From Octopus vulgaris (Eukaryota), in contig OX597834.1 of the NCBI GenBank assembly GCA_951406725.2, positions 36,518,001 to 36,582,000 of the forward strand: a DNA stretch of 64,000 nt, in the 5' to 3' direction. The notes under the pieces are model-generated. The model was not told where the DNA came from. It made no database searches and was given only the letters and a program-made list of their open reading frames with translations. Below, piece by piece: positions 2,575 to 37,000 of this stretch (within the stretch, counting starts at the first letter, position 1; every line of letters starts with the position of its first letter). The translations under genes were made by a program, and so were the position numbers.

Positions 2575-2626
2575 CTGCTTTTCAATCTTGCTCTTTTGCA
2601 TGTTTGCAGGATAATCATCAGGTATG
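2575..2626 (-). CDS. Candidate internal exon 3 (52 nt, phase 2-0): (S)IPDDYPANMQKSKIEKQ
   Basis: Minus strand reads tatttgttgtttttgtag|CATACCTGATGATTATCCTGCAAACATGCAAAAGAGCAAGATTGAAAAGCAG|gtaagt. Consensus sites, open in the frame continuing from exon 2. Confidence 0.75.
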
Positions 2627-2892
2627 CTACAAAAACAACAAATATAGAAATAAATATATGCTGCAACAATAACAAAACACATTCATATATACATAACTTT
2701 ATACACACATATGGTCTAGTGGTTGGGGTGCTGCGCTCACAATTGCAAGATTGTGGGTTCAGTTCCCAGACCAAGCCCTATGTGTGAGATATATCATCAT
2801 CATTGTTTAATGTCTGCTTGCCATGCTAGCAATTGAAACCACGATCCTATGACCGCGAGTCCGCTGCCCTAACCACCGGGCCATTGCGCCTC

Positions 2893-3275
2893 TTGCTAAC
2901 CAACCACATGGTTCCAGGTTCAGTCCCACTGCGTGGCATCTTGGGCAAGTGTCTTCTGCTATAGCCCCGGGTCGACCAATGCCTTGTGAGTGGATTCGGT
3001 AGACGGAAACTGAAAGAAGCCTGTCGTATATATGTATATATATATAAGTGTGTGTGTATATGTTTGTGTGTCTGTGTTTGTCCCCCTAGCATTGCTTGAC
3101 AACCGATGCTGGTGTGTTTACATCCCCGTCACTTAGTGGTTCGGCAAAAGAGACCGATAGAATAAGTACTGGGCTTACAAAGAATAAGTCCCGGGGTCGA
3201 TTTGCTTGACTAAAGGCGGTGCTCCAGCATAGCCACAGTCAAATGACTGAAACAAGTAAAAGAGTAAAGAGTAAG
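2893..3275 (+). mobile_element. SINE family A, 5'-truncated
   Basis: ggttcagtcccactgcgtggcatcttgggcaagtgtcttc...internal (TA)/(TG) tract...gactgaaacaagtaaaaga. Confidence 0.9.
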
Positions 3276-3289
3276 AGTATATATATATA

Positions 3290-3455
3290 CTCTCGGAGTG
3301 GTTGGCATTAGGAAGGGCATCCAGCTGTAGAAACACTGCCAGATCTGACTGGCCTGGTGCAGCCTTCGGGCTTGCCAGACTCCAGTTGAACCGTCCAACC
3401 CATGCTAGCATGGAAAGCGGACGTTAAACGATGATGATGATGATGATGATGATGA
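3290..3455 (+). mobile_element. RTE LINE 3' UTR fragment with (GAT)n tail
   Basis: ggagtggttggcattaggaagggcatccagc...gcatggaaagcggacgttaaacgatgatgat. About 15 copies in the window; linked to RTE coding sequence at 52170-52420. Confidence 0.8.
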
Positions 3456-4029
3456 TATATATATATGCATGTGTATATATGTTTCTCTTCTATTTTTAAT
3501 CATTTAAATTCTTTCTTTGAAGAAGGAGCTGGCTTTTAGCAAAAATACAAAACTCCATCGTCGGAAGGTAGATAACGAAAACAAAGTCACATTTTAGACT
3601 TGAGAAAAGTCTTGCAGAGTTTTACTGTTCCACTTACAGATTCTATTTGTAATGTGTGAATCAGGGGCCTGATTTCTTTTTCTGAAAATCCAAGCTCATC
3701 CAGACAGTTAGGTGTTTACCCACAAATTCAAGTGATCCAATTATCATTGGTTAAAAATGTGAATTTGTAATCCTGAAGCAGGAGATTTCAAAGAAGTTTT
3801 CCATGTATGTATGTGTGTGCGTGTGTAGTCATGTAATGTAAAAAAATGGGGTGTATTGAACTGTGAAATTTAAATAATATCAATTATGCAATTATACCCT
3901 TATGGATCACAAGAAGTCATTACCCAATTGACTAATCATGGTTCAGAAATGGTGACACTCTAGAATTTAAATTAATTGAACATAGAATACAGTGTGGTGT
4001 GAGTCTGATCTTTGGTAGTATGGTGACAC

Positions 4030-4070
4030 CTACAGACATGCTTCAGTCTTATGAGACCTCATCAGTGAAG
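4030..4070 (-). ncRNA. Degenerate minimal type I hammerhead ribozyme motif (Penelope-like)
   Basis: CTTCA CTGATGA GGTCT cata AGACT GAAG CATGTC TGTAG. Core CUGAUGA intact, 5-bp stem II, GAAA mutated to GAAG, near-palindromic stem III, GUC triplet, stem I with one mismatch. Confidence 0.6.
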
Positions 4071-4119
4071 TCTGGATAACTGTTATTGTAAAAATCTGAG
4101 AGCAACTCCAGAGATATAG

Positions 4120-4495
4120 GAGTTTGTAAGGAATATGTTCTGAACGACAACTGAAAATAACAAATGAATGTAAATAAGTAAAATGAATGGGGGAAAAGTT
4201 CCTAAGGACTTATGCTGCATAGAAAATTAATAGTGAAGAGTGTGCTAAGGAGGTGAAACTATTATGGAATTTTATCATACGGACAGACCACAAAATAGAA
4301 CAGAAGGAACCTGACATCATTTTCATTGACAAAAATCATAATGGTGCAATTAATTATCAACATAATTAATACCAAAATAAGTTGGAGAGCTACAAAAGTA
4401 TGCCATTCCAACATTTGATTAAAAAAAAAGAAAACAAAATATTATGGCAATTAAGGAATGTGTGAATGCATCAATCATCCCAATTGTAACTGACA
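4120..4495 (+). mobile_element. Relic of an R4/Dong-type (restriction-like endonuclease) non-LTR retrotransposon
   Basis: From 4256: KLLWNFIIRTDHKIEQKEPDIIFIDK, matching the KxLWDFxIxTDxxIxxxRPDIVxxDK RLE motif. Later an IIPIV-like remnant. Multiple stops. Confidence 0.75.
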
Positions 4496-33900: not shown

Positions 33901-34159
33901 AAGTCAACAAGTTATTAATCATGTTGTGGTTGGCAGAATCGGAAGAGCATCGTACGAAATACTTTGTGGCATTTCGTCTGTCTTTACGTTCTGAGTTCAA
34001 ATTCCACTGTGGTTGACTTTGCTTTTCATCCTTTTGGGGGTCATTGAAACAAATATCAGTTAATCACTGGGGACGGGGGTGGGGTTTCAATTTAATCAAC
34101 AAGGCCCCCTCCCATCAAAATTACTGGGTCTGTGCAACATTCAGAAAGAGACATTACTG

Positions 34160-35290
34160 CAGTTGTAATTAGGTTTCCTGTTGATATTGAGGTGGTGGTG
34201 GTCGTAATTGTTCTTGTTATAATTGTAGTAGTGGTACCGGCTGTTGTAATTGTTATAGTAGCAATTATAATTGTTGCTATTGTGGTGGTTGTAGTAATGG
34301 TGGTAGTAGCAGTGGTGATGACAGTGAGGGTAGTGGTGATGGTGGTGATGGTTGTGATGATAATGATGATGCTGATGATGAGTGTGGTAGTGGCAGTAGT
34401 GGTGGTAATGGTGGTGGTGTTACCGGTCGTTATTGTTCTCGTCGTAGTTGCAATCATTATTGCTTTTATTATTATTATTATTACTATTATTATTATTATC
34501 ATTATTGCTTTTATTATTGTTATTATTATTATTATTGTTGTTGTTGTTGTTATTATTATTATTGAGGTAGTGATGGCTGTAATAATTGATGTTATTATCG
34601 ATATGATTCTTGCCGTTGTTGTGGTCGTCGTCCCGGCGTTTGTTGGTTATTGTTATCATACTTGCAACTATGAATGTTGTTGTCATCACTAAGGGATCGG
34701 TGAGAGTGGTGGTGGTGGTGCTGCTGCTGGTCGTGATGGTAAGGGTTTTAGTGATAGTGGTGATGTTGATGACAGTGGTGGCAGTGTTACAGGTGGTGGC
34801 GATGTTAGTGATGGTGGTGGTGGTGGTGTTAGTGGTGGTGGTGGTAGTGGTGTTAGTGATGGTGGTGGTGTTAGTGGTGTTAGTGATGGTGGTGGTGGTA
34901 GTGGTGTTAGTGATGATGGTGGTGGTAGTGGTGTTAGTGATGGTGGTAGTGTTAGTGATGGTAGTGGTGTTAGTGATGATGGTGGTGGTAGTGGTGTTAG
35001 TGATGGTGGTGGTGGTAGTGGTGTTAGTGATGGTGGTTGTGTTAGTGATGGTAGTGGTGTTAGTTTGGTAGTGGTGGTGTTAGTGATGGTGGTGGTGTTA
35101 GTGATGGTGGTGGTGTTAGTGATGGTGGTAGTAGTAATTACTATTATTGTGATCCTTGTCGTTACCATAATTATGGCACTAACGATCATTGCTGTAGTGG
35201 CTGTTGTTGTTGTAAAATCAATTATGAGAATGTTGCTATCGTTGAGGCAGTGGTGGTGGTGGTGGTGGCGATAGTAATTGTTGTCGTTGC
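34160..35290. repeat. Degenerate (GTG/GTA/ATT)n tracts including a GTGTTAGTGATG(GTG)n minisatellite
   Basis: Directly visible. Confidence 0.92.
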
Positions 35291-36199
35291 GGAGGTAATC
35301 TTTAAGATTACTGTTAATGTTCAAGTTGCAGTGGTGCTGTTGCAGTTGAGGTCATAGTTTTAAAGCAGTTGTGAGTGTTATTGTTGTTGTTGTTGCCATC
35401 ATCACCATTATTATTCATCTCATTGTTGTTATTGTTACCTGTCACAGTTGTTGTCATTACTGCCAATCCAGTTATTTGCTTAAGTTGTTGTGTATTTAGT
35501 CCAGCCATGACCACCATGTTTGTTCTAGCCAAGTACCTTATATCTTGTACCTGTTTCAGCTATTGGACTGCAGCCATGCTGGAGCAACACTGAAAGGTTC
35601 TTATTTAGAAACCAAAAAAAAAAAACATAAACAAAACAAAAAAAAGGTCCTAGTGATTTTTCTTTTTCTTATTTTTAAAGTCTGGCACTCATTCTATCGG
35701 TCCCTTTTGCCAAACTGCTAAGTTGCAGGGACGTAAACAAACTAGCACTGGTTGTCAAGCAGAAGTGGAGGACTAACACAAACACACACACACAAACACA
35801 CATACATATAACCATACAGCCATGCCTGTTCCCAGACATACAAAACAAAAAAAAAAAAGCAAAAAGAAAAGAAAAGCAGCCATGACAGCATGGTAAGAAG
35901 CTTGCTTCCTAACCACATGGTTCCGGGTTCAGTCTCACTGCATGGCACCTTGAGCAAGTGTCTTCTACTATAGCCTTGGACTGACCAAAGCCTTGCGAGC
36001 GGATTTGGAAGATGGAAACTGAAAGAAGCCTCTCATGTATATGTGTGTGTGTGTGCGTCTGTTTGTCCCCACCATTACTTGATAACCAGAGTTGGTGTGT
36101 TTACATCCCTGTGCAAATTCTGTTGTTAAAATTTATCTACAAAGAAATTGGTTATACTTCGATGTTGCATAAAGTATTTTGACAATTTTGTTTCTATTA

Positions 36200-36369
36200 C
36201 AGGTATGGCTGTGTGGCAAGAAGCTTGCTTCCCACCCACAAGGTTCTGGGTTCAGTCCCACTGCATGACACTTGGCCAAGTGTCTTCTACTATAGCCTCG
36301 GGCTGACCAAAGCTTTGTGGGTGGATTTGGTAGACAAAAACTGAAAGAAGCCTGTCACATACATATATA

Positions 36370-36415
<46 letters not shown>

Positions 36416-36748
36416 AATGTATATATGCATGTATGTATATATATATATATGTATGTATGTATGTATGCATGTATGTATATACACATATACATATATGTGT
36501 GTTTGTGTGTGTCTTTGTGTCTGTTTGTCCCCACATCATTGCTCGTCAGCCAATGTTGGTATGTTTACGTCCCCACAACTTAGCAGTTCGGCAAAAGAGA
36601 CTGATAGAATAAGTACTAGGCTTACCAAAAAATAAGTTGTGGGGTCGATTTCTACGACAAAAAAACCCCCCCAAAAACGACCCTTTAAGGTGGTGCTCCA
36701 GCATGGCTGCAGTGAAGTGACTGAAACGCGTACGAGAATAAAAGAATA
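36200..36748 (+). mobile_element. SINE family A, full length
   Basis: Same structure as 21301-21743; lies about 200 bp inside intron 1. Confidence 0.88.
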
Positions 36749-36953
36749 CAATTGCTAATGATATTTAATTAGGAAAGTATATAATAGGATGTTTTGAATA
36801 ACGAACGGCTATGAGAGGGGTCCATCAGAGTGAAAGGGGATAATTGAAAGGGAAGTTTGTAAGTAAAAGAAAAAAAAAAAAATGGTTGAGAACCACCGTT
36901 TTTAAGTGTAAAAAAGCTTGTTTTTTTTTTTCTGTCACTTTGTTTTACCTTAC

Positions 36954-37000
36954 CTTTGTTCGATTTGCGAGAATTCTTCATATTTGTAAACTGGCTCCAT
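36954..37000 (-). CDS. Candidate first coding exon (47 nt) of an unidentified long-intron gene: MEPVYKYEEFSQIEQ+AG
   Basis: Minus strand reads cgtacgATGGAGCCAGTTTACAAATATGAAGAATTCTCGCAAATCGAACAAAG|gtaagg. Kozak A at -3 and G at +4, consensus donor, unique non-repeat context. Ends in phase 2, matching the next exon. Confidence 0.72.

Follow-up and report, generated by a model that had tools for sequence, protein, structure and literature searches.

The first three coding exons of the octopus Tubby gene in a 64,000-nucleotide window of Octopus vulgaris

Exons in the window and the rest of the gene

The stretch of DNA analysed here (hereafter the window; 64,000 nucleotides (nt), C21 (contig OX597834.1):36,518,001-36,582,000 of the 2.8-Gb Octopus vulgaris assembly) contains coding exons 1 to 3 of the 13-exon octopus Tubby gene, a gene of the TUB/TULP3/king tubby type. 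All three segments are found on the minus strand, at window positions 37000-36954, 14438-14388 and 2626-2575, with consensus splice sites and phases 0-2, 2-2 and 2-0, as set out in the original prediction, which was made from the letters of the window alone. Of the sizes it gave, 51 and 52 nt are those of whole exons, while 47 nt covers just the coding portion of exon 1, which is at least 323 nt long.

Exon 1 (36954-37302) consists of a 5' untranslated region (UTR) running from 37302, at least, to 37001, followed by 47 coding nt (37000-36954, residues 1-16) that end at a GTAAGG donor. The strong Kozak ATG ascribed to it has A at -3 and G at +4. Exon 2 (14388-14438, 51 nt, residues 16-33) encodes an SGPPG motif common to other molluscs and sea urchin and contains the in-frame Met codons that serve as starts of shorter isoforms. 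Exon 3 (2575-2626, 52 nt, residues 33-50) codes for the first half of the stretch aligning with the helix of TULP3 (residues 19-44) that binds complex A of intraflagellar transport (IFT-A). Exons 2 and 3 have AG acceptors and exons 1 to 3 have GTAAG donors. Intron 1 (14439-36953), which holds many simple repeats, and intron 2 (2627-14387) are GT-AG introns of 22,515 and 11,761 nt, in agreement with the 22.5 and 11.8 kb originally estimated.

Intron 3 (4,431 nt in all) begins within the window (2574-1), and exons 4-13, which code for what remains of the helix, for the linker and for the Tub domain, lie to its left on the same strand, from C21:36,516,143 down to 36,481,456. A conserved domain left of the window had been foreseen, and the exons for the Tub domain are indeed found 11.6-36.5 kb past that edge. 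The 13 exons (47, 51, 52, 166, 138, 113, 198, 113, 121, 99, 88, 84 and 134 nt) are separated by GT-AG introns throughout and give a coding span of about 73.5 kb.

The search for the remaining gene drew on the window and a 200-kb flank on either side of it. Three exons on the left each matched Pfam Tub, one over the cut-off and two slightly under it. With exon 7 as a protein query, 29 proteins were found among 32 candidates; all 29 have a Tub domain, and the best was O. vulgaris CAI9738555.1 (P0001; Tubby-like protein in UniRef). The O. sinensis tubby-related protein 3 isoform X1 (XP_036367842.1, P0032) belongs to the same cluster. The 13 joined exons translate to 467 amino acids and a stop with 0 mismatches to XP_036367842.1, so that the two proteins, identical at 467/467 residues, differ nowhere, and the open 50-residue N-terminus to which the three segments had been joined equals residues 1-50 of the annotated protein. 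Because the 13 exons give a protein identical to an annotated Tubby, the three segments are the beginning of the Tubby gene.

That they might instead be a chance set of splice-like sites, or part of a separate unknown gene, has next to no probability. Scanning the minus strand of the window and of the left 200 kb for splice sites gave 19 candidates, the best 11 of which fall at eight distinct sites; five of these eight are Tubby exons (2, 3, 7, 8 and 10) and the other three are not, so splice-like islands do arise by chance. A stricter scan of the window alone recovered exon 2 and a plus-strand island at 21248-21314 and missed exon 3. Chance is refuted by the 467/467 identity to an independently annotated protein, whose start is the predicted peptide, and by a sequencing contig that crosses the first splice (see below), so the judgement that three such exons were no accident was right. 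The gene is not hidden, though, as had been supposed, since the O. sinensis annotation has the exact N-terminus and the O. vulgaris annotation covers exons 2-13; nor does its protein, described as unrecognised, remain so. Six-frame translation of the window yields 92 open reading frames of at least 120 amino acids, which are chiefly frames through simple repeats.

Transcripts and alternative 5' starts

Contigs of four of the 24 sequencing runs found (X1, X2, X4 and X10) were aligned to window positions 36700-37760, skipping a repeat at 37059-37135. Those of X1, X2 and X4, which come from three studies, are colinear over 36954-37302, 36954-37291 and 36954-37276, respectively, and all end at 36954. 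It is this continuation upstream into the 5' UTR that sets the minimum length of exon 1. In the X4 contig, 25 of 25 letters past 36954 match the opening 25 nt of exon 2 (window 14414-14438); intron 1 is therefore spliced out and the junction 36954>14438, which had been put forward as a check, is present. By their record coordinates the X1 and X2 contigs each carry 28 unplaced letters past 36954. The X10 contig (organism B) reaches only 37142-37302 of exon 1 (161 nt with one difference) and has no bearing on the splice. The basis for the junction between exons 2 and 3 is annotated and transcript-derived proteins, the read alignment having covered 36700-37760 only.

The X4 contig reaches 37276 and then runs on for 17 letters. 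These correspond, in reverse complement, to the 3' end of the SMART template-switch oligo, as it appears in the oligo table of PMC8579666, with an extra G. This template-switch tail identifies X4 as a cDNA library. The extra G beside 37276 we take to be a cap signature. On this single contig (depth 2), 37276 on the minus strand is one cDNA 5' end and a probable transcription start. Starts are probably spread over several positions, because the X1 and X2 contigs extend beyond it, to 37302 and 37291. At 37270, also in the 5' UTR, the contigs of X1, X2 and X10 have T where the plus strand of the window, like X4, has C; this is probably a polymorphism and, being G to A on the transcript strand, it is not adenosine-to-inosine editing.

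The O. vulgaris model CAI9738555.1 is from the same locus and its residues 16-467 are identical, while its first 15 residues do not come from exon 1. It maps upstream to a piece of 7 nt at C21:36,650,845-36,650,839 (L028) and to two pieces at about C21:36,604,430-36,604,311 (L024), all on the minus strand and right of the window. Taken as a single exon, the stretch 36,604,430-36,604,311 holds an in-frame stop, which the model seems to avoid by cutting a short, weak intron. For this reason we infer that the upstream pieces are 5' UTR exons forced into frame by the predictor, and the start of the model looks forced. The pieces probably belong to another promoter, which would lie about 96 kb above exon 1; the gene probably has two or more 5' starts, with exon 1 among them. 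The first residues of CAI9738555.1 resemble another Mytilus N-terminus (P0006).

Transcripts that lack exon 1 would begin translation at an exon 2 Met, like O. sinensis isoform X2 (P0030). Isoforms with and without the N-terminal extension are annotated in Mytilus, Haliotis and Liolophura too, those starting in exon 2 being P0053, P0095 and P0091, respectively. From such isoforms, in these three genera and in O. sinensis, it could be argued that exon 1 is transcribed without its ATG being the main start, so that the exon 2 Met is used and the extension of 16 residues would be minor or incidental. This is unlikely given the strong context of the ATG, a frame that stays open on entering exon 2, and the likeness of the peptide to those of three other mollusc classes, which points to the protein being under selection. 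Ungapped, the exon-1 peptide is identical to the Mytilus extension at 8 of 16 residues (shuffle p at most 1e-4), to that of Liolophura at 5 of 16 (p about 2e-4) and to that of Haliotis at 4 of 16 (p about 4e-3).

The comparison covered 102 proteins, of which 24, including the query, were above threshold. The Mytilus proteins had been found through exon 7 and the cluster listing, which involves no selection on the exon-1 peptide; those of Haliotis and Liolophura were found with residues 1-110 (four matches among nine candidates), which does involve such selection. The exon-1 motif was in none of 150 cluster representatives (first 120 residues), a weak blank as each 50% cluster is represented by one sequence, and the peptide was seen in no non-mollusc among the proteins compared. 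The peptide of exon 1 is shared by mussel, abalone and chiton isoforms, so exon 1 is probably an old mollusc first exon. The residue before the Met-Ser motif of exon 2 is C in Octopus and W in Argonauta, the cuttlefish cluster and chiton; an H-S-D-W motif in sea urchin and marsupial N-termini may be homologous.

Tub domain, N-terminal helix and a probable role in cilia

The octopus protein matches Pfam Tub (PF01167) over residues 216-462 with 321.5 bits (cut-off 27, E 6e-96), spanning model positions 2-256 of 256. All six matches in the Protein Data Bank (PDB) are tubby, TULP1 or TULP3, with E 5e-128 for the tubby chains. Human TULP3 (8fh3_I) aligns with octopus residues 23-467 and does so without a gap over 23-80. 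In TULP3, bioRxiv 10.1101/2021.05.25.445488 identifies K268 and R270 as residues for phosphatidylinositol 4,5-bisphosphate (PI(4,5)P2) and K389 as a cargo residue. All are conserved in octopus: the first two are K291 and R293 (in ungapped alignment to 8fh3_I) and the third is K414. By its Tub domain and functional residues, the gene thus belongs on sequence grounds to the Tubby family, in the TUB/TULP1-3/king tubby type. TULP4 has WD40 repeats and a SOCS box before its Tub domain, and plant TLPs have an F-box there. A Pfam scan of XP_036367842.1 at E up to 1 gave only Tub, Tub_N and DUF3527, and no WD40, SOCS box or F-box match, which rules out both types for the octopus gene.

A putative N-terminal basic helix is, with the Tub domain and the lipid and cargo residues, what octopus shares with human TULP3 and vertebrate TUB; its helix is shorter and less basic, with W at K41, and its linker scores under the Tub_N cut-off. 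In the human protein, PMC10066299 describes how the helix at residues 19-44 and the loop at 45-54 dock on IFT140 and IFT122, and how mutations of K41/K42/R43 or F47/V49 reduce IFT-A binding and ciliary cargo traffic. TULP3 residues 19-54 correspond, ungapped, to octopus residues 38-73, with the first half of the helix in exon 3 and the remainder in exon 4. Marsupial TUB isoforms (P0007, P0017, P0065, P0067 and P0076) diverge immediately before and after a 17-residue block, which implies for marsupial TUB an exon equal to exon 3 in length and phase (52 nt, 2-0).

By homology, the N-terminal helix of octopus Tubby would bind the IFT-A transport complex, the C-terminal Tub domain would bind PI(4,5)P2 and membrane cargo, and the protein would carry receptors and channels into cilia. 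A precedent in invertebrates is Drosophila dTULP (king tubby), likened here through the literature: in PMC3778012, its IFT- and phosphoinositide-binding regions are both needed to place TRP channels in auditory (sensory) cilia. Since the lipid- and cargo-binding residues have been kept, octopus Tubby is likely to be a ciliary trafficking adaptor. The developmental or neural regulator originally suggested fits Tubby biology (sensory cilia and receptor trafficking) loosely, but nothing seen here ties the intron sizes and microsatellites from which it was deduced to such a function. The reading as a whole, namely that the window holds exons 1 to 3 of octopus Tubby and that the protein is likely to be a ciliary adaptor with an IFT-A helix and a lipid- and cargo-binding Tub domain, is given a probability of about 0.9.

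Several observations weigh against it. None of the 24 sequencing runs is recorded as RNA, so that their RNA nature was guessed, and the letters of the splice between exons 1 and 2 are displayed for X4 only, at a contig depth of 2. CAI9738555.1 uses other upstream exons, with a different sequence for its first 15 residues. Pfam Tub_N (PF16322) is below its cut-off in the octopus protein (13.7 versus 28.4 bits, E 0.082, residues 59-97); it also fails in Mytilus (15.9) and passes in sea urchin (34.5) and marsupial (233.6). Of the five interface residues, only K42 and R43 are identical, with K41 replaced by W, F47 by G and V49 by M.

With the gene still being Tubby, IFT-A binding could have been lost or weakened in octopods and the protein could act mainly outside cilia, for instance in the nucleus or in the endocytosis or membrane traffic of photoreceptors with microvilli. 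Fly Tubby reportedly has a non-ciliary role in rhodopsin endocytosis. In keeping with such a change, two of 26 distinct motif-matched segments, those of Octopus and Argonauta, are the only ones with W at the K41 position, and they alone (again 2 of 26) have L in place of R after the boundary of exons 3 and 4; the low Tub_N score points the same way. However, the family is highly variable at the K41 position, where K, R, Q, E, H and N all occur (R in the cluster that contains a cuttlefish protein, P0002), and the G at F47 is found in chiton and abalone as well. Moreover, K42, R43 and the subsequent Q-P are conserved and the helix segment aligns with TULP3 without a gap. A mainly non-ciliary octopod Tubby is therefore improbable, and a ciliary adaptor is preferred.

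More speculatively, and with the odds well against it, exon 1 may be an alternative first exon present across the molluscs and kept since the chiton, snail, bivalve and cephalopod lineages split, its peptide being functional, and octopods may separately have retuned the IFT-A helix with the W at K41. The exon-1 motif M-E-P-x-Y/F-K/R-x-x-x-F/W would then provide one isoform of Tubby with a partner or location of its own.

Neighbouring features and significance

A family search of the genome gave five matches among ten scored candidates, three at the Tubby locus and two on C3. The latter, on the minus strand near 105.52 Mb (L042:7188-7328 and 2577-2672), score 44 and 46 bits and belong to another Tub-domain gene, one that is more divergent and is probably TULP4. 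The sole Rfam match in the window is a weak tRNA at 2210-2267 (plus strand, in intron 3; 30.2 bits versus 29) and is likely to be a tRNA-derived short interspersed element (SINE).

The island at 21248-21314 (plus) and another at 58562-58418 (minus) are isolated, exon-like and have open frames. There was no significant Pfam match for that at 58562-58418, and both islands are probably due to chance. About 118 kb below the Tubby stop, at C21:36,363,006-36,362,866 (L017:4866-5006, minus), there is a unique open segment of 141 nt with good splice sites; it has no significant Pfam match and may be an exon of a neighbouring gene.

As gene discovery these results have small weight. This is an ordinary conserved and annotated gene, and octopus Tubby was already known, its protein being in RefSeq for O. 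sinensis. In the literature searched, which comprised titles and the starts of abstracts, with most subscription papers outside it, there was no paper on Tubby of octopus or cephalopods. For the O. vulgaris model CAI9738555.1, from which exon 1 is missing, the results do provide a corrected start. If the exon-1 peptide or the octopod W is functional, there would be isoform-level control of the traffic of ciliary receptors in the sensory cells of molluscs.

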